64,000 nt of DNA, from assembly GCA_963664405.1 (NCBI GenBank), contig OY761158.1, positions 6,016,001 through 6,080,000 of the forward strand, read 5' to 3'. This document shows, one piece after another, positions 34,143 to 42,336 of the stretch. The position numbers and the translations under genes were made by a program. Origin of the DNA: Thermoanaerobaculia bacterium. GTDB lineage: Bacteria; Acidobacteriota; Thermoanaerobaculia; Multivoradales; Multivoraceae. Position 1 is the stretch's first letter; each line of letters begins with the position of its first letter. A model generated the notes under the pieces. That model worked only from the letters and a program-made list of their open reading frames with translations, made no database searches and was not told the origin of the DNA.

Positions 34143-35600
34143 TCAGATCCGATCGGGGAAGGTGGCGGTGCCGGGATTTTGAAGCGCCCGTTGTGCAGCG
34201 ACGCGAAGGTAGTGATCTGGCGCGACGCCATGCAGCCGCGCAGTCTCGCAGAGCGAGTAGAGAATGGCTCCGACCTCGCATCCTCGGCGAGATCGAAACT
34301 GTAGATAGTTCTTTCGGCCGACGACGGGTCCTCGCAGCGCGTTCTCGGCACGGTTGTTGTCCAGCGGTAGCCGTGCATCCTCGAGGAAGCGAGTCAGCCC
34401 CTCCCAGCGAGCCAGGATGTACTTGACCGCCTTGATGAAGTCGCTGCGCGGAAGCCCCGTTTGCGACAGCGCCCAAGCCTTGATCGCCGCAATCACCTTC
34501 GATGAGCGCTTCACTCGAGCCTCCGCCCGGCGCAGCAGAGTGTCCGCCGGTTCAAGATCCAAGGCGTCGATCTCGCGCTCGATCTCGTAGAGCTCTCCGA
34601 TCAACTTCAAGATCTGGGCGCACTCCCGCGGCCGATGCTTCTGCGCATCGCGGAATTTGCGCAAACTGTGAGCCCAACAATTCGCCAGACGCAGGGGCCC
34701 GGCCCGGGAAAGCTGCTCGTACACTGGGTAGCCGTCCGCGATCACGATTCCGTCGTAAGCGCCGAGGATCTCCTCGCCCGCAGCGAAGCTCTTGCGCCCC
34801 AGCGTGTACCAGGCATGCTGATTCGTGCTGAGCACCCAGAGAGTTTCTCGTCTCGAGTGCTTGCCCTGCGTCAGCAGGAAGCCCGTCTCGTCGGCATGGA
34901 GGAAGTCAGATCCCAGGATCTGCTCCTTGAGCGCTGCATAGGTCGGTCGCAGCACCTCGGCTAGGGCTTGCTCCTGGTCCCACAGCGTCTGCTTCGTCAC
35001 TCGTAGACCGCTGCGGCTGAGCTCCTTGACCTGGCGATGCAGAGGCATGTGATCGACGATCTTCGACGTCGCCACCGAGACCGCAAACTCCAGCGAGTAC
35101 CGACCGCCGGGCACCAGCCGCGGATGCGGATTCGGCGCCGTCCCAACTGCGCTGTTGCAAGCGCAACGGTACTTCTGGCGCCGATGCACCAGACGCACCA
35201 CGCGCTTCATCTCGATCGTGATCTCTTCGGAGTCTTGTGTCTCGACGCCCAAGGGCTGAAGCGTCGGGTCTCCACAGGCCGGACACGTCCGCTCGCCCTC
35301 TCCCAGCACGTGCTCCAGGACGACCACCGGTAGGTCCGGTTGCGGCGTCGGCCCGTGGCCGCGCTGCTTGCGCGGTCGCGCTTCCGAGTCGGGGAGCTCC
35401 CGGGCCTGGCGCTGGATCTCGAGCTTGCCAAGACCCAGAAGCAACTCGAGCTCGGCCTGATCGGCGTCCTCGCCGCGCAGGCTCGCATTCTCTCGCTTCA
35501 GCTGGCGGACCAGGTCCAGCAGACGGTCGTTTTCCGTGCTCAGAAGCGAATAGTGCGCGAGTACGACGTCGAGAGAGGCGATCGTTTCGGGCACCTGCAT
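34143..35600 (-). CDS. tnpC: IS66 transposase TnpC
   Basis: CPACG zinc finger; HADET, ADGY, CWAH, LDNNRAENALR and GRKN motifs. Confidence 0.92.
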   Translation of the reverse strand: MQVPETIASLDVVLAHYSLLSTENDRLLDLVRQLKRENASLRGEDADQAELELLLGLGKLEIQRQARELPDSEARPRKQRGHGPTPQPDLPVVVLEHVLGEGERTCPACGDPTLQPLGVETQDSEEITIEMKRVVRLVHRRQKYRCACNSAVGTAPNPHPRLVPGGRYSLEFAVSVATSKIVDHMPLHRQVKELSRSGLRVTKQTLWDQEQALAEVLRPTYAALKEQILGSDFLHADETGFLLTQGKHSRRETLWVLSTNQHAWYTLGRKSFAAGEEILGAYDGIVIADGYPVYEQLSRAGPLRLANCWAHSLRKFRDAQKHRPRECAQILKLIGELYEIEREIDALDLEPADTLLRRAEARVKRSSKVIAAIKAWALSQTGLPRSDFIKAVKYILARWEGLTRFLEDARLPLDNNRAENALRGPVVGRKNYLQFRSRRGCEVGAILYSLCETARLHGVAPDHYLRVAAQRALQNPGTATFPDRI

Positions 35601-35616
35601 CGGATGCCCCTTTCTC

Positions 35617-35997
35617 TCATGCCGGTGAGCGAATCGCAAGCTCTTTTTTGTCTAGATTCTCAGGAACAAGTCGTTTTCTACCAACGGCTTGGCTTCCTTC
35701 GAGAAACAGCCCAAGCTCAGCCCGAGACAGACGCAGTACGGGACCTCTTCGATCCCGCCAGAGGCACGCAAATCGGCCCTTCTCCAGACGTTTTGCCAGC
35801 AGACAAAGGCCCGATCCATCGAAGACCAACACCTTCGCCCGCACACGGTTGCGAGCTACGAAGAGGAAGAGATCTCCCGACAAGACGTTTTGATCGAGAT
35901 CCTGCTCCACCAGAGCCGCCAGGCTGTCGTACCCCTTGCGCATGTCCACCGGGCCCGCGTACGCGAAGACCTGCCGGCCGGGAAGCAACTCCATCAT
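35617..35997 (-). CDS. tnpB: IS66 accessory protein TnpB
   Basis: PVDMRKGYDSL and KRLEKGRF motifs. Confidence 0.92.
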   Translation of the reverse strand: MMELLPGRQVFAYAGPVDMRKGYDSLAALVEQDLDQNVLSGDLFLFVARNRVRAKVLVFDGSGLCLLAKRLEKGRFACLWRDRRGPVLRLSRAELGLFLEGSQAVGRKRLVPENLDKKELAIRSPA

Positions 35998-36326: not shown

Positions 36327-36416
36327 CGTTGTCCCCTTCGAAACGACAACGACAACACGGATCCTCGAACCAAGCTAGACGGGCTACGGCGAACTCTTAC
36401 GGTGGAACCGCTCGCT

Positions 36417-36508
36417 TTACTCGAGCTCGTAGCTCTCGTCTAGCCCCGGCGAATAGATCGGCGGATTGCCGCGCCAGTGGCCCTGCAGAAAGCGGACCGA
36501 TGACTCCA
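36417..36508 (-). repeat. Orphan 92-bp copy of the 3' end of gene 37952-38974
   Basis: Matches 37952-38043 apart from two substitutions. Confidence 0.9.
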
Positions 36509-36646
36509 CCCTGGTGCACCCTGGAACGGTGCCACCCTCTTGGTCCAGGAGCTACCTCCGAAAGCCAACTAACCCGTCGACCCCAGCCTCCTGCAAGGTG
36601 TTCGCCCCGGATCGCGTCCTCTACTTTCAGGAGGACCCAGGCACCA

Positions 36647-37582
36647 GTGCGAAGACCCAGAGGATTAGTTGCAGATCGCCTCGTCGAAGTCACCACACGG
36701 ACATCTCAGGGTCGCTACCTACTCAGCCCCTCCCCCGAAGTGAATCGGACCATAAAGGGTGTCATCGGCCGGGGCCAGAGACGGACCGGAATCGACATCT
36801 GTGGCCTCGCCTTCATGTCCAATCACGCCCACATGCTCCTCGTCCCGGAGAGCACTGAACAGCTCAGCGAGTTCATGGGATTCGTGAACGGAAACATTGC
36901 TCGCAAGGTCGGCCCTCTCCAGGGCTGGCGGGGCAGGCTCTGGGAGCGGCGCTACCAGCACATCATCATCTCCGACGAGCCCGAAGCTCAGATCGCTCGT
37001 CTGAAGTACCTCTTCTCCCAAGGCACCAAAGAGGGCTTGGTACGCCATCCCTTGGATTGGCCCGGGGTTCATTCTGCCGGCGCGACCCGGCGAGGCTATC
37101 GAGAGATGACCGGTGGTGTTTGGCATGACCAGACCGCAGAAGGCAAGGCTCGAAGAGCCGGTAAAATACTGACGCCACAGGAGTTCCTCATCGAAGAGGT
37201 GATCCGGTTGAGTCACGTTCCGTGTCTGGAGGACTGGAGATGGGAGCCGAGGTTGGAGCTCATCGAGCAGCTCCTACACGAGTGCGAGCAGATGGGCCGC
37301 CAACTTCGGGAGGACACCGGCAGACCTCCGATGGGGGCGAAGAAGATCCTCATGCAGGTCCCCGACTTCCGGCCGAAAGAGCTGGATCGATCCCCAGCTC
37401 CAGCCTTTCACGCGGTTTCGAGAGAGGCCTTCCAGAAGCTCAGAAAAGAGCAGAGAGAGTTCGTGAGCCTCTACCGCGAGTCCGCGGAGAAGCTCAAAGA
37501 AGGGGGGCTCGAGGTGGCCTTTCCACCCGGATGTTTCCCACCCCACCTACCCTACGTCCCCGAGGTGCGGGCAGGTCCGTAG
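36647..37582 (+). CDS. Y1 HUH transposase (IS200/RAYT-like)
   Basis: VEVTTRT, FMSNHAHML (HUH), LWERRY, LKY...KEGLV and WPGVHS motifs; RBS AGGAGG before the GTG. Confidence 0.85.
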   Translation: MRRPRGLVADRLVEVTTRTSQGRYLLSPSPEVNRTIKGVIGRGQRRTGIDICGLAFMSNHAHMLLVPESTEQLSEFMGFVNGNIARKVGPLQGWRGRLWERRYQHIIISDEPEAQIARLKYLFSQGTKEGLVRHPLDWPGVHSAGATRRGYREMTGGVWHDQTAEGKARRAGKILTPQEFLIEEVIRLSHVPCLEDWRWEPRLELIEQLLHECEQMGRQLREDTGRPPMGAKKILMQVPDFRPKELDRSPAPAFHAVSREAFQKLRKEQREFVSLYRESAEKLKEGGLEVAFPPGCFPPHLPYVPEVRAGP

Positions 37583-37951: not shown

Positions 37952-38974
37952 TCACTCGAGCTCGTAGCTCTCGTCCAGCCCCGGCGAATAGATCGGCGGA
38001 TTGCCGCGCCAGTGGCCCTGCAGAAAGCGGACCGATGACTCCAGGGTGAGATCCCCCCGCCTTCGCAGTGCCTCGACGCAGGCGTCGTAGGCGGGGCCGT
38101 CACCGCCGAGCTTGACCATCACCGGCGGGCGCGTCGCCTGCCAGTGCTCGTAACTGACGTAGCGCACCATCATGTAGGCCTCGTCGTAGCTGGGGTCTTC
38201 GGCGGGCAGGTCGCTTCCACCGGTCGTCGGCGTATTCGCTTCCAGACCCTCGCTCTCACCCGGCAGCGGATAGACCCTCAGCCATTGACCGACGATGCGC
38301 GCTCCCATCTTCTCGAAGTAGGGCCACACTCCGTCTTCGCTCAGGCTGCGGACCTGTGCAAAGGTCCCCTTCTTGATCCTGAAACGCCGCAGGGTGACGA
38401 TTTCTTGGCCCGGCTTGTAGCGACCGTGGCGCACCGGATGCACCGAGGACTCTCCCTCGACCTTTCGATAGCTCTCGTCGAGAGGGGGAAAGTAGTAGGG
38501 CACATTGGGCGCCATCGCTCCCTCCAGGTAGATCGGCCCGTCGGAGCCAGTGGTCACACTGCGTCGTATGGCCGCGGCCTCGCGCATCGCATCCCAGTCT
38601 GGGCCGTTGCCACCAAGCTCGGCACCACGTCGCGTCGCAGCCCAGTGGTTGAAACTGCGGTATCGCGCTATCCGATAGCCCTCGTCGTCACCGGCCGGCT
38701 TGCCACCCTGCGGGTAGACCACTTGCCACTGACCGACGTTGCGATTTCCGAGCTTCTCGTAAAACGGCCACACTCCGTCTTGCGACGCTCTCAGGTAGGT
38801 GTCGTGCGTTCCCGGCTTCAGTTGCTGGTGACGAAGAACCAGAAACTCGGTCCCAGCCTGGGATGTGCCATGGCGAACCGGGACGGGCTCCTGCGCTGTG
38901 ACGTCGGAGGACATGGTTGCGAACCCGAGAAGAACACAGATCCACCCACGAACTAGTCTTTTATCGCGCGACAC
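37952..38974 (-). CDS. Secreted protein with two NIPSNAP-like repeats
   Basis: Internal duplication of LR...K.GT...S.DGVWP..EK.G...VGQW...Y.S..HW.ATR. Confidence 0.7.
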   Translation of the reverse strand: MSRDKRLVRGWICVLLGFATMSSDVTAQEPVPVRHGTSQAGTEFLVLRHQQLKPGTHDTYLRASQDGVWPFYEKLGNRNVGQWQVVYPQGGKPAGDDEGYRIARYRSFNHWAATRRGAELGGNGPDWDAMREAAAIRRSVTTGSDGPIYLEGAMAPNVPYYFPPLDESYRKVEGESSVHPVRHGRYKPGQEIVTLRRFRIKKGTFAQVRSLSEDGVWPYFEKMGARIVGQWLRVYPLPGESEGLEANTPTTGGSDLPAEDPSYDEAYMMVRYVSYEHWQATRPPVMVKLGGDGPAYDACVEALRRRGDLTLESSVRFLQGHWRGNPPIYSPGLDESYELE

Positions 38975-39032
38975 TCTCACCTCCCCAGCGTTTGACCGAA
39001 GAATGTTACCTTGCCGGGGAAAACGACGCGAC

Positions 39033-39576
39033 TTACGCGGCTCGTGAGCCGGCCCGTACCCTAGCTTCCCATCGATCGATTGGAGCCCAGAGGCCGGGAC
39101 AGGGCTCGAGCACGGTTGCCGCACCTCCGCGGAGGCGCGCCAGGAGGAAGGGAATCACTCGCATCTCGCATCCCGGGATGCCGATCACGGCGGCCAGCAG
39201 GTGGCAGAGGCCCATATGGAGATGCACCGTGAGGGTCAAGAGAAGGGCGTAGGTCGCCACTGTGGGGTCCCCAGAAGGCTCCGCTCTGTAGCCACTGAAT
39301 CCCGGATAGGCCGAACCCCACGACCAGCGCGACCCCGGCCGGGGCGTTGCCCACCGGGAGCACCCGATGCAGGCCGAGCCGAATATTGAACGAAACCAGG
39401 TAGAACGCAAGGGCAACGAAGACCCAGAGACCCGTGCTCCAAGTGGCTTCTCTCAGCCCAGAGAAGTGGGCGATGATGGAGACGACGCCCTGGATCTGGA
39501 ACAAACCGACGAGAAGCTTGCCGATGCGTCCAACAATCGATGCCGGAGGCATGCCCTCGGCCGTCACCGTCGCCAC
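39033..39576 (-). pseudogene. Membrane protein (GCE motif, DUF6410-like), frameshifted at about 39265
   Basis: The N-terminal TM segments are in one frame up to AFWGP; the C-terminus TVATYALLL...GIPGCEMRVIP...PIDRWE is in the next frame. One extra C in a C4 run. Confidence 0.6.
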
Positions 39577-39586
39577 ACCACATCCC

Positions 39587-40669
39587 CTAGCGCGCTGCCA
39601 CCCTGACTTCGAAGTTAGCGCTGAAGCTCGCCAGCACCTCTTCGCGGGACTTCTGGCCGACGAGCTTCTCGAGCAGGCGTCCTTGGGCGTCGAGGAAGAA
39701 GTAAACCGGCACGAGATGACTCTCTACCAGGTCCGCCAGACTCGGATCGTTGAACCCCCAGATCTCGAACCTCGGCTCGAGCTCGGGCAGCCAGGCGTTC
39801 AGATCCTCGATGGATCCGCTGTTGATGTAGACACCGACCACGTTGATGCCCCTCGGACCGTAGGAGTCGGCAAGATGGTTGAGGATCGGTAGCGAGTCGA
39901 GAGAGTGACGGCAGTGAACGGCCAGGAAGACGAGGAGCGTCTCGGAGCCTCGAAGGCCGCTGAGACTGACTTCCTCGCCGGCCACGCTGTGGGCGGCGAA
40001 CTCCGGCAGAATGAAGTTCTCGAAACGCTGGCCATCCTCGGCCTTCTCGGTCACATACATGTCGAGGATCTCTCCGGTGGCTCCCGAGAGGTCGCCGTAG
40101 ATGGAGCACGCTTCATACTGTGCACAGCGGCTACCTGCGAGCAGATCGCCGAGGGCGCCCATCTCTTCCAGTTTGTCCATGACCGCATTGGTGAGCACGG
40201 CGCGATGATCCTCTGCGACCCTGACTGCGGTCGCTTCGAACACTTCGCTGTCTTCGAAGGCCGGGCTGCCGGTCTGAATAATGCGCTTGGCCATCCAATC
40301 CGCCACCCGATCGAGCTCCTCTGAGGAGAGATCGCCTCTCGAGGTCGCCGGGGTGCCCTCGCCCTGGAGTTGGGTTGGGTAGCCCACCTTGTTCACCACA
40401 TCGACCAAGTGCTGCGCGCTGACAGTCTTGGCCTGGATTCGCGCGATCGCTTCGTTCTTCGTGCGATCCACCGAGATCACCTCGACCCCGTCGACTCCCG
40501 CCAAGGCTCCCTTGACTTGAAGCTGACACATGGAGCTCGACATTCCCCGCACCTCGAGCACTACGGTCTCTAGATCCGCCTCCGCCGCGGACCAGATTGG
40601 AATTAGCGCGAGCAAGGTTGCCAGGAGTAGCAGTCGACCAAGAAATCTGTTGCTGGTAAATAGCGTCAT
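39587..40669 (-). CDS. Secreted HMA-domain + TlpA/redoxin fusion protein
   Basis: Signal peptide; HMA VRGMSSSMC; C-terminal redoxin LLVFLAVHCRHSLDSLP...VPVYFFLD. Confidence 0.78.
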   Translation of the reverse strand: MTLFTSNRFLGRLLLLATLLALIPIWSAAEADLETVVLEVRGMSSSMCQLQVKGALAGVDGVEVISVDRTKNEAIARIQAKTVSAQHLVDVVNKVGYPTQLQGEGTPATSRGDLSSEELDRVADWMAKRIIQTGSPAFEDSEVFEATAVRVAEDHRAVLTNAVMDKLEEMGALGDLLAGSRCAQYEACSIYGDLSGATGEILDMYVTEKAEDGQRFENFILPEFAAHSVAGEEVSLSGLRGSETLLVFLAVHCRHSLDSLPILNHLADSYGPRGINVVGVYINSGSIEDLNAWLPELEPRFEIWGFNDPSLADLVESHLVPVYFFLDAQGRLLEKLVGQKSREEVLASFSANFEVRVAAR

Positions 40670-40682
40670 CGTTCTCTCCTTG

Positions 40683-40997
40683 CTAGCTTTGCTTGAGAAG
40701 GGTCGACAGGACCTTGGTGACTCGGTCCAGTCGCTCGTCAGCATCACCGGTCATGCAGGTCTGGACGCACGACTTGAGCTCGTGATCGATCAGCACAGCA
40801 CTGAACTTATTGAGCGCCGCCTTCAGCGCGGCGACCTGGAGCAGGATCTCGTCAGCGCACCTCTCCTCCTCGACCATGCGCTGCACCGCTCCAACGTGTC
40901 CCTGGAGCCGTGCCAAGCGATTCGAGAGCGCCTTCTTGGAGGCGGCGTCGAGGTAGCCGGTCCCTGCTTTAGCCGCGGCCAGCTCTGCTGTTGTCAT
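40683..40997 (-). CDS. CsoR/RcnR-family metal-sensing repressor
   Basis: RLARLQGHVGAVQRMVEEERCADEILLQ...HELKSC motif. Confidence 0.9.
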   Translation of the reverse strand: MTTAELAAAKAGTGYLDAASKKALSNRLARLQGHVGAVQRMVEEERCADEILLQVAALKAALNKFSAVLIDHELKSCVQTCMTGDADERLDRVTKVLSTLLKQS

Positions 40998-41024: not shown

Positions 41025-41780
41025 TCAAGGCTGGTCTAGGTGGTCGAGCTCGCGGGCAAGCTCTTTCGCCTCGATGAAGCCTACGTGGCGAAAGAGCTCT
41101 TCGCCCTTGGGCGCCAGGACGACGATTGTGGGCAGGCCGAGTGCTTCGTAGTAGTTGGCCGCGACAGGATGTTCGTCGGTGTCGATTCGAAGGAACACAT
41201 TTCGTCCCAGGAACTCTTGAATCCCCACCTCGGAGATGGTTCGCTCTTCGAGCACTTTGCACGGGGCACACCACTCGGCCCAGAAGTCGAGAAAAAGGAG
41301 CTTTCCTTCGCGCTCTGCGGTGGCCAGCGCGACGGATATCGGCGGCGGAACCGGGCCGCTTCTCTGTTTCGCCTGCGCACTGTCTCCAGACGGAACGATC
41401 TCGGGCTCGAAGTCGAGCTCCGTGATTGCTTCCAGCATCTCAGTGGGTGCCACCTCGCCCGGGTCGTATCCCACCGTGAAGAGATCGGTGTCCAGATCGA
41501 CTCGGACTGCTTCGACTCCTGCGAGCCCTTCCAGGGCCGCTTCCACGCTGTCGGGTCAGCCCATTCACGTGGCGCCGCTGCGACTCTTCATCATGCCCCG
41601 CACGACGATGCGAACGGTCTCGCTCGAATCCTCTGGGCTCCCGCCGCGCCGGATGGGAATGTCGAGGACGATTCTGCCGCCGAGATCCTCCTGGGCGGCG
41701 GCCGTTTCCCGGTGGTCGACTGCGAGGAGTAGGAAGGCCACGACCGTGGCCGCGACTAAGGGCTTGTAGCGATACTGCAC
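41025..41780 (-). CDS. Predicted selenoprotein: signal peptide + HMA domain with UxxU + thioredoxin (WCAPC)
   Basis: ORFs 41565-41828 and 41025-41546 are in the same frame, separated by TGA-ATG-GGC-TGA at the CxxC position of the HMA fold. A hairpin lies just 3' of the UGAs. Confidence 0.78.
41521..41540 (-). other. Candidate bacterial SECIS hairpin
   Basis: GCGGCCCU-GGA-AGGGCUCGC, with a G-led apical loop 23 nt after the second UGA and 32 nt after the first. Confidence 0.5.
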
Positions 41781-41830
41781 GGATCGGCTCGTCTTCTTTT
41801 CCGCTATCTCCAAGAAGGCTCCCCACATAA

Positions 41831-41937: not shown

Positions 41938-42336
41938 ATGAGCCGACCCCTCGATGCAGGCGCCGCAGCCGAGGTCGCCCGGCAACATCGTATGGCGGAC
42001 AGCGTCGGGGTGCCCGTCGCGCGCCGCCACATCTTTCTCTGCGCCGATCAGACCAAGCCGCAGTGTTGCGAGAAAGAAAGGGGCCTCGAGGCTTGGAGCT
42101 ATCTCAAAAGGCGTCTCCGTGAGCTCGGCCTCTCCGAGGCCGGTGGCGTACTGCGAACGAAAGCGAACTGCCTGCGCATCTGCGAAGGCGGGCCGGTCGC
42201 TGTCGTCTACCCGGAAGGCACCTGGTATCGGCGATGCGATCCGCCCGTGCTCGAGCGCATCATCCAGGAGCATCTCCTCGGCGGCCGAGTGGTCGAGGAC
42301 TACCTGATCGTAGATCGCCCCCTCGACCCCTCTTAG
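41938..42336 (+). CDS. Thioredoxin-like (2Fe-2S) ferredoxin
   Basis: HIFLC...KPQCC...[20 protein letters not shown] motif. Confidence 0.9.

Follow-up and report, generated by a model that had tools for sequence, protein, structure and literature searches.

A probable selenoprotein gene with two in-frame TGA codons

The gene described here lies in a 64,000-nucleotide stretch of DNA from a Thermoanaerobaculia bacterium (Acidobacteriota; GenBank assembly GCA_963664405.1, contig OY761158.1, positions 6,016,001 to 6,080,000), referred to below as the window, whose first letter is position 1. It occupies 41828..41025 on the minus strand, i.e. 267 codons followed by a TGA stop at 41027-41025, and it is very probably one selenoprotein gene in which two selenocysteines (Sec, U) are inserted co-translationally by the SelB pathway. 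The start is an ATG at 41828 (-), preceded at a distance of 4 nt by AGGGGA; a GTG at 41780 (-), the upper coordinate of the earlier sequence-based note on this locus (the original prediction), could serve as start instead. The list of open reading frames (ORFs) splits the gene into two parts that share one frame, 41828..41565 (87 aa, with GMMKSRSGAT at its end) and 41546..41025 (173 aa, starting with MEAALEGLAG). When TGA is read as U, a single 267-residue protein terminated by a third TGA is obtained, and Pfam recognises both a heavy-metal-associated (HMA) and a thioredoxin domain in it, so the two called ORFs are one frame as had been proposed.

The minus-strand letters around the internal TGAs are ...GGC GCC ACG TGA ATG GGC TGA CCC GAC AGC GTG GAA GCG GCC CTG GAA GGG CTC GCA..., which agree with the coordinates previously assigned to the two codons (41565-41567 and 41556-41558). 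The first, UGA1 (41567-41565, minus strand), corresponds to Sec88 at the first position of a UxxU motif and is TGA in 11 of 11 family members; the second, UGA2 (41558-41556, minus strand), corresponds to Sec91 at the second position and is followed by the invariant Pro92. Both coincide with the CxxC columns in the Pfam HMA profile, where the original prediction had placed them. Within the window, TGA is also the normal stop codon of uvrA, of an alcohol-dehydrogenase-like gene and of the HMA-thioredoxin gene itself, and the earlier statement that the genetic code is unchanged therefore holds.

Conservation of the TGA pair

Homologous DNA was compared in 11 genomes, i.e. six loci from a collection of species-representative genomes and five full-length matches from the phylum, the window included. 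Six of the 80 loci found in the representative collection span the HMA part; all six have TGA at both positions and read G[MF]xKS[RK]SGAxUxxUP, and they are assigned to Krumholzibacteriota, Acidobacteriota and two metagenome-assembled genomes automatically named 'Heliomicrobium'. When 401 genomes from the phylum of the window were searched with a profile, five full-length matches were obtained (the window among them), each with two TGAs (5/5), and the loops of the full-length matches read GFMKSRSGAVUMAUP, GMMKSRSGATUMGUP, GMQKTASGATULGUP and GMQKSRGGATUFGUP. All others among the matches listed in this search cover the thioredoxin domain only, and 317 genomes have such thioredoxin-only matches. 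Note that the phylum tallies include unpublished genomes (G209, G108 and G083 in the profile search, G108 and G083 in the selA sample considered below, and all three in the pattern-search set); these affect the denominators only, as all three have thioredoxin-only matches, G108 and G083 are among the 69 genomes with selA, and none is a family member.

TGA is thus found at both columns in 11/11 genomes, that is, in 10 of the 10 homologues from other genomes, even though the identity to the window protein is 30-43% over the whole length and 34-51% over the HMA part. Neither Trp nor any other residue replaces it in these 10 homologues. In the 11 HMA-part sequences the invariant residues are G78, K81, G85 and A86 before the motif, U88 and U91 within it, and P92, L99 and E100 behind it, so that conservation continues past both TGAs and does not stop at the first. 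Since the same two columns carry TGA in all 10 homologues from other genomes, the pair is beyond what chance would produce.

Among 5.8 billion predicted proteins, 43 matched at E <= 1e-5, and none of them (0/43) covers the UxxU position. Those closest to the query, 15 in number (32-92% identity), are pieces of 156-199 aa that start at or after MEAALEGLAG, just past UGA2. Such a shared truncation of public gene calls is the expected product of conserved stop codons. A metagenome scan with the generic pattern WC[AG]PC gave at least 80 loci, none of which (0/80) reaches the HMA part, a result that has no bearing on how abundant the family is.

One further match, in G014 (query residues 64-258, no stops), was not accepted as a member: it is a WCGPC domain with neither signal peptide nor HMA loop, it has two CxxC pairs, and we take it to resemble thioredoxin-2. 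At a contig end in G258 (L216:1-2031) the frame of a homologue remains open for ~526 codons upstream, with another TGA there in the motif SPTUPGC; this upstream stretch may represent a larger fusion with three Sec residues or else a separate selenoprotein gene that precedes the homologue in frame.

No Cys form carrying the KS[RK]SGA loop was found in the protein, phylum-profile, representative-profile or DNA-pattern searches. The DNA pattern, in which TGA, TGC or TGT was allowed at both positions, matched four of the 401 genomes, all with TGA/TGA and none with TGY; three of these are family members and the fourth (G273) was discarded as a chance match, its frame translating to nonsense. A profile of the HMA part gave 11,422 matches at E <= 0.001 in the representative collection, and the best 150 of them, which were listed, are mostly long proteins with 3-9 matching stretches each. 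Six of the best 150 were examined: all have Cys at the motif, five with classical GMTCxxC repeats and one (P0162) with variant loops, and the KS[RK]SGA loop is present in none of the six. The absence of a Cys form is nevertheless unproven, since single-domain Cys forms could rank below the best 150. In the wider HMA family Cys stands at the aligned motif positions, as judged from the Pfam match, and a UxxC form also exists.

A SECIS-like hairpin and the selenocysteine machinery

Behind the two UGAs there is a hairpin resembling a bacterial selenocysteine insertion sequence (SECIS), GCGGCCCU-GGA-AGGGCUCGC (41540-41521, minus strand), with a core helix at 41538-41524 and a GGA loop at 41532-41530 that starts at a distance of 23 nt from UGA2 and 32 nt from UGA1. 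The bSECIS model, as summarised in the legend of Fig. 2 in PMC13188914, has a loop of 3-9 nt, a stem of 4-16 bp, G in the first two loop positions and a spacing of 16-37 nt; the hairpin found here agrees with it, having a stem of 6-8 bp, a GGA loop and both spacings within 16-37 nt. For the comparison, 58 nt from UGA1 onward were aligned for all 11 genes. An 8-bp hairpin was independently predicted by RNAalifold from these 11 sequences; in the 6-bp core 98.5% of the cells are paired, three of the six pairs are changed on both sides and the GGA loop is invariant. The strongest covariation joins base 3 of the Ala98 codon (GCU/GCC, synonymous) to base 2 of codon 101 (GAG Glu/GGG Gly): the pair is U-A in six sequences and C-G in five, i.e. 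paired in 11/11. As L212 has C-G inside an otherwise U-A group, at least two independent switches are likely. The G-led hairpin at a SECIS-compatible distance, noticed originally in the window alone, is thus strengthened by compensatory changes, and we infer that one hairpin serves both UGAs.

Another hairpin, UGACCG-GAAA-CGGUCA, would include UGA2 itself and is not claimed. It has 80% of its cells paired, and three of its six pairs depart only through unpaired cells. L133, L136 and L137 show it clearly, L134 and L135 imperfectly (the loop-closing pair being lost), and the window not at all.

The window's genome is a single 6.78-Mb contig and is 97% complete. The Sec machinery, whose presence the original prediction had proposed to check, was found in full: tRNA-Sec (selC; 72.4 bits, reported by ARAGORN as SeC with anticodon tca), selA (423 bits; open frame of 469 aa, no internal stop), selB (340 bits; open frame of 669 aa, no internal stop) and selD (G000:C1:388007-388930, L018; 362 bits). 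One in-frame TGA is present in selD itself, which makes the SelD of this organism a probable selenoprotein.

Domain architecture of the predicted protein

The structure was predicted by AlphaFold2 (AF2) from a 25-sequence alignment, with a mean predicted local distance difference test (pLDDT) score of 82.3 and a predicted template modelling (pTM) score of 0.70; block means of pLDDT lie at 94-98 for residues 71-140 and 161-260, and they drop to 80-87 for the linker. The protein begins with a hydrophobic segment (~residues 22-46, ...PLVAATVVAFLLLAV...ETAAA/Q, the slash marking the putative cleavage site; 41691..41765, minus strand) that is modelled as a helix at 24-38 with low pLDDT. It reads as a signal peptide or a signal anchor, the A-x-A cleavage site having been read by eye and not predicted by a tool. 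A hydrophobic leader begins seven of the seven aligned proteins, which supports the export that had been suggested for the protein.

The HMA domain (~residues 70-146; 41391..41621, minus strand) was identified by Pfam, AF2 and Foldseek. PF00403 matches residues 84-138 with 34.9 bits (gathering cut-off 24.8), the alignment beginning only at profile position 5. The AF2 model has the beta-alpha-beta-beta-alpha-beta order of the fold (E70-77, H90-100, E105-111, E116-121, H128-136, E141-145) and resembles a metal-binding domain of ATP7B (6a71_A) with a template modelling (TM) score of 0.93 normalised to the target (Foldseek). The canonical GMxCxxC loop is not present. Instead, the window protein has G-M-[MKSRSGA]-T-U-M-G-U, i.e. 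seven extra residues and Sec in place of both Cys. The extra segment M-K-S-R-S-G-A (residues 80-86; 41571..41591, minus strand) lies between beta-1 and the first Sec, in the beta1-alpha1 loop; K81, G85 and A86 are found in 11/11 homologues, S82 and S84 in 10/11, and at the level of the aligned sequences the segment is a conserved family motif, G-x-x-K-S-[RK]-S-G-A-x-U-x-x-U-P. It had been described as a 6-aa insertion, KSRSGA. The additional loop segment is real, but relative to GMTCxxC it is seven residues long (MKSRSGA) and, being conserved in the family, it is no casual insertion.

The thioredoxin-fold domain (~residues 164-264; 41037..41339, minus strand; Pfam) carries the active site W-C-A-P-C at residues 186-190 (41273-41259). 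PF00085 matches residues 175-262 with 42.9 bits (cut-off 23.5), and the thioredoxin families as a whole cover 166-262. In the 25-sequence alignment W186, C187, P189 and C190 are invariant, and position 188 is A or G. The top Foldseek matches of this domain are the periplasmic C-terminal (gamma) domains of DsbD (1vrs_D, 2fwe and 2fwf), at 30-34% identity and TM scores of 0.73-0.77 normalised to the target.

Genomic context

The next gene downstream (40683..40997, minus strand) encodes a 104-aa metal-sensitive repressor of the CsoR/RcnR family (Pfam PF02583, 73.2 bits). It is followed at 39587..40747 (minus strand) by a gene for an exported protein of 386 aa that joins an HMA-like domain (GMSSSMC) to an AhpC/TSA-type redoxin (HCRHS). 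A 388-aa counterpart of this HMA-redoxin protein adjoins the homologue in another genome (L214:2221-3387, minus strand) and has the full CxxC in both domains (GMTCGSC; HCSHC), unlike the neighbour in the window, which keeps one Cys per motif. The CsoR-family repressor and the HMA-redoxin paralogue together suggest a small metal-responsive operon.

Two further ORFs on the same strand are without a Pfam match. The first (39061-39576, 171 aa) is hydrophobic in its N-terminal half and ends in a tail rich in Arg, Pro and Gly, and the second (37952-39124, 390 aa) contains an internal duplication in which ...VRHG...GVWP(F/Y)(Y/F)EK(L/M)G... occurs twice; the overlap of the 171-aa ORF with the start of the 390-aa ORF could reflect a frameshift or mis-set gene boundaries. 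Beyond them come a plus-strand ORF (36329-37582) whose product has an IS200-like Y1 transposase domain and, on the minus strand, an IS66-family transposase (34143-35639). These transposases, located between the operon and dnaE, suggest insertion of mobile elements near the locus. On the other side, a divergent ORF of 132 aa (41938-42336, plus strand) with a Cys-rich pattern (... NCLRIC) stands between the selenoprotein gene and uvrA, and it has no Pfam match.

As regards the homologues, L214 is flanked by the HMA(CxxC)-redoxin(CxxC) gene upstream and by MerT-like and MerP-like genes downstream, L133 has MerT directly upstream and a zf_CopZ protein farther upstream, and L132 has a zf_CopZ protein upstream. 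A MerT or MerT-like gene therefore adjoins two of the 11 loci. In L214 the MerT-like membrane protein (...SLCCILPL...) continues in frame past the TGA of the homologue; we took this TGA as a stop and the MerT-like gene as separate. The window's genome has one DsbD_TM gene, far from the locus.

Possible function and alternative explanations

The best overall explanation, which we hold with reasonable confidence, is that the gene encodes a Sec-containing, exported soft-metal binder equipped with its own thioredoxin reductant. The protein would be exported, after which both selenolates would bind a soft metal ion, i.e. Cu(I), Hg(II) or Ag(I), much as in MerP or CopZ, though presumably more tightly owing to the selenolate ligands. 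Outside the cytoplasm the UxxU pair would easily be oxidised; the fused thioredoxin domain might keep it reduced or re-reduce it, and would itself receive electrons from a membrane protein of the DsbD/CcdA type encoded elsewhere, for which the gene at G000:C1:4236905-4237546 is a candidate. That export, metal binding by the two selenolates and protection of UxxU by the DsbD-gamma-like domain all apply together is somewhat likelier to be right than wrong. The role of a metal binder with a thioredoxin partner fits the DsbD-gamma-like fold and the metal-related neighbours in 4/11 loci.

A number of observations weigh against this picture. Metal-related neighbours occur at only four of the 11 loci (the window, L132, L133 and L214), the other seven having unrelated contexts; MerT was not found in the window's genome; and a DsbD/CcdA gene adjoins none of the loci examined. 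Although selA is present in 10/10 genomes with a homologue, so it is in 69 of the 81 genomes sampled from the phylum, and because the phylum is rich in Sec this co-occurrence is uninformative. Taken alone, the hairpin of the window does not exceed shuffled sequence in stability (z -0.85 and 0.12), which is why the comparative alignment was relied on instead, and since its loop lies within the invariant Leu-Glu codons, constraint on the protein contributes to the conservation of the hairpin. Finally, the KS[RK]SGA subfamily is without a Cys form among the sequences found, although, according to a review (PMC9312934), most selenoproteins have Cys-form homologues.

In favour of the alternative that the gene is no selenoprotein at all, the public gene calls found all correspond to the C-terminal piece and the window hairpin is thermodynamically unexceptional. 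The locus would then be a pseudogene, the product of a sequencing error, or an 87-aa leader peptide followed by a 173-aa thioredoxin starting at GTG 41546. We consider this very improbable: the TGAs sit on the CxxC columns in all 11 genomes, from several lineages and at low identity, with invariant motifs on both sides, conserved signal peptides upstream and covariation in the hairpin, and the C-terminal piece alone would lack both beta-1 of the HMA domain and the export signal. Even less probable is a decoding of the UGAs as Trp, Cys or Gly through a code change or near-cognate suppression. Low-level near-cognate read-through of UGA does occur in bacteria, but TGA terminates the three window genes named above, the selA and selB frames extend over 469 and 669 aa free of internal stops, the genome encodes the complete Sec machinery and the gene a SECIS-type hairpin, and the positions are those of the two metal/redox cysteines of the fold, for which Sec is the standard substitute. 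Pseudogene, sequencing error, two genes and code change are effectively excluded by the conservation.

More serious competitors accept both Sec residues and differ in what they do. The UxxU pair might act as a redox relay, a low-potential diselenide/diselenol centre that draws its electrons from the fused DsbD-gamma-like domain as the alpha domain of DsbD does, with the HMA fold as a mere scaffold; its targets in the periplasm could be e.g. Cu(II), reduced to Cu(I), partner proteins such as the HMA-redoxin neighbour, or oxidised metalloids. The thioredoxin domain is indeed closest to DsbD gamma, which passes electrons to another domain within DsbD, and the best NCBIfam match is the DsbD C-terminus. 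A second HMA-redoxin protein occurs in the same operon in the window and in L214, the KS[RK]SGA loop is unlike every classical GMTCxxC metal loop observed, and the seven loci without metal genes nearby also agree with a relay. However, HMA is a metal-binding family as far as is known, the MerT, MerP-like, zf_CopZ and CsoR neighbours at four loci point to metals, and the catalogued UxxU relatives bear a metal-binding name. We regard the relay as unlikely; it can coexist with metal binding. It is still more doubtful that the protein is a selenium-based replacement of MerP, which would capture periplasmic Hg(II) and pass it to a MerT-type importer for detoxification in the cytoplasm. MerT directly upstream in L133 and the MerT-like and MerP-like HMA genes directly downstream in L214 favour such a role, and Sec-containing MerP (PMC2398784) and MerT (bioRxiv 10.1101/2022.07.06.499078) are on record as selenoproteins. 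On the other hand, no MerT was found in the 97%-complete genome of the window, the regulator belongs to the CsoR and not to the MerR family, the match to TIGR02052 reaches 23.6 bits against a cut-off of 92.55, and seven of the 11 loci are without mer genes.

One can further speculate about an obligately Se-dependent periplasmic module, in which a diselenide/diselenol pair bordered by the invariant KS[RK]SGA loop would make up a metal or redox site, a DsbD-type relay of electrons would recharge it through the gamma-like domain, and one SECIS would provide for both UGAs. This is a tentative suggestion that we think rather less likely to be right than wrong. If it is true, a chemistry that requires Se and is beyond the reach of cysteine would explain why no Cys forms were found, which is unusual for selenoproteins.

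Several implications can be pointed out. As the 15 nearest relatives in the 5.8-billion-protein set are all C-terminal fragments, the family escapes annotation, and a function in metal or redox handling may have been overlooked in several environmental lineages. From general chemistry, one would expect an HMA loop with two selenolates to bind Hg(II), Cu(I) or Ag(I) far more tightly than CxxC does, which would bear on the handling of Hg and Cu in sediments and soils. The fused DsbD-gamma-like domain suggests a means by which an oxidation-prone Se-Se site might be kept working outside the cytoplasm. The family is also a compact natural system for asking whether a single bacterial SECIS can serve two UGAs three codons (9 nt) apart and, if this is true, it would allow one to study in a natural bacterial setting how SelB delivers twice in succession from one element. 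Lastly, the family appears to be a rare case of selenoproteins for which no Cys counterpart was found.

Comparison with known systems

It is useful to compare the predicted protein with MerP and CopZ (GMTCxxC), with which its HMA domain has the fold in common; MerP is also exported, and some of the homologues adjoin MerT. The window protein differs in having Sec for both Cys, a loop longer by seven residues and a fused thioredoxin domain, and it misses the equivalog cut-offs by far (MerP TIGR02052, 23.6 vs 92.55 bits; CopZ, 40.7 vs 91 bits). The gamma domain of DsbD is, like the thioredoxin domain described here, a periplasmic CxxC domain for electron transfer, and the best NCBIfam match of the window protein is to DsbD positions 467-572, at the C-terminus. 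The score is 59.5 bits against the cut-off of 330 for DsbD (NF001419) and concerns the C-terminal domain only. Unlike DsbD, the protein has no membrane domain and no alpha domain, and its presumed electron source is encoded elsewhere.

Among selenoproteins, the eukaryotic selenoprotein L has a UxxU motif in a thioredoxin-like fold and a single SECIS in the 3' untranslated region, and formation of a diselenide has been proposed. It shares UxxU and a single SECIS with the window gene, but its fold is thioredoxin-like and not HMA; no homology is implied. Two relatives belonging to the same family, G005 (P0002, L028:1480-2175) and G002 (P0003, L038:1516-2187), encode UxxC proteins with the same signal peptide-HMA-thioredoxin (WCGPC) architecture. 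These fusions, a sister subfamily, are ~30% identical, have Sec at the first motif position only (UQSC) and are without the KS[RK]SGA loop. Their SECIS is also different, GCGCGGC-GGUC-GUCGCGC, and follows close behind the UGA; its GGUC loop resembles that of E. coli fdhF.

Further exported HMA proteins with in-frame TGAs are encoded elsewhere in the window's genome (G000). The one at G000:C1:3942752-3942961 (minus strand) has two (GLTUPLU), gives 28.2 bits with the NCBIfam model NF041115 and continues after its HMA part into an extra domain of ~95 aa without assignment. The other, at G000:C1:3325724-3325912 (plus strand), has one TGA in GMIUGGC (UxxC); no other match in the genome scores higher against NF041115, but its 54.8 bits remain under the cut-off of 95.

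NF041115 itself ('UxxU_metal_bind', metal-binding (seleno)protein) describes a predicted family that is likewise of the HMA type and has Sec at both CxxC positions. It is a stand-alone model of 74 positions, to which the window protein adds the KS[RK]SGA loop, the signal peptide and the fused thioredoxin. The match between the two reaches 42.5 bits (cut-off 95) over residues 84-145 and begins at profile position 11, past the loop; in a six-frame search no sequence of the window's genome reaches the cut-off of 95, the HMA-thioredoxin locus giving 32.3 bits. A UxxU metal-binding family with two Sec is listed in the tables of two reviews (PMC13188914, PMC9312934); a Sec-containing MerP is found in a 2008 table of the Global Ocean Sampling (GOS) selenoproteome (PMC2398784), and selenoproteins of the MerT family are mentioned in a preprint (bioRxiv 10.1101/2022.07.06.499078). 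Neither 'UxxU' nor 'heavy metal' was found in the available text of the 2007 paper on the Olavius symbionts (PMC1976440), and the first description of the UxxU family was not traced beyond the review tables. The selenoprotein literature, as far as it was accessible, gave no mention of a fusion of HMA(UxxU) with thioredoxin.

The proposal that the family is uncharacterised was therefore right only in part. UxxU proteins of the HMA type are already curated in NF041115 and in the review tables, and what was not found catalogued in the sources available is the fused, loop-bearing subfamily, with its DsbD-gamma-like fusion, its invariant KS[RK]SGA loop and its apparent lack of Cys forms. In other words, an HMA domain with two Sec residues is already known, and the window protein extends the catalogued UxxU HMA selenoproteins.

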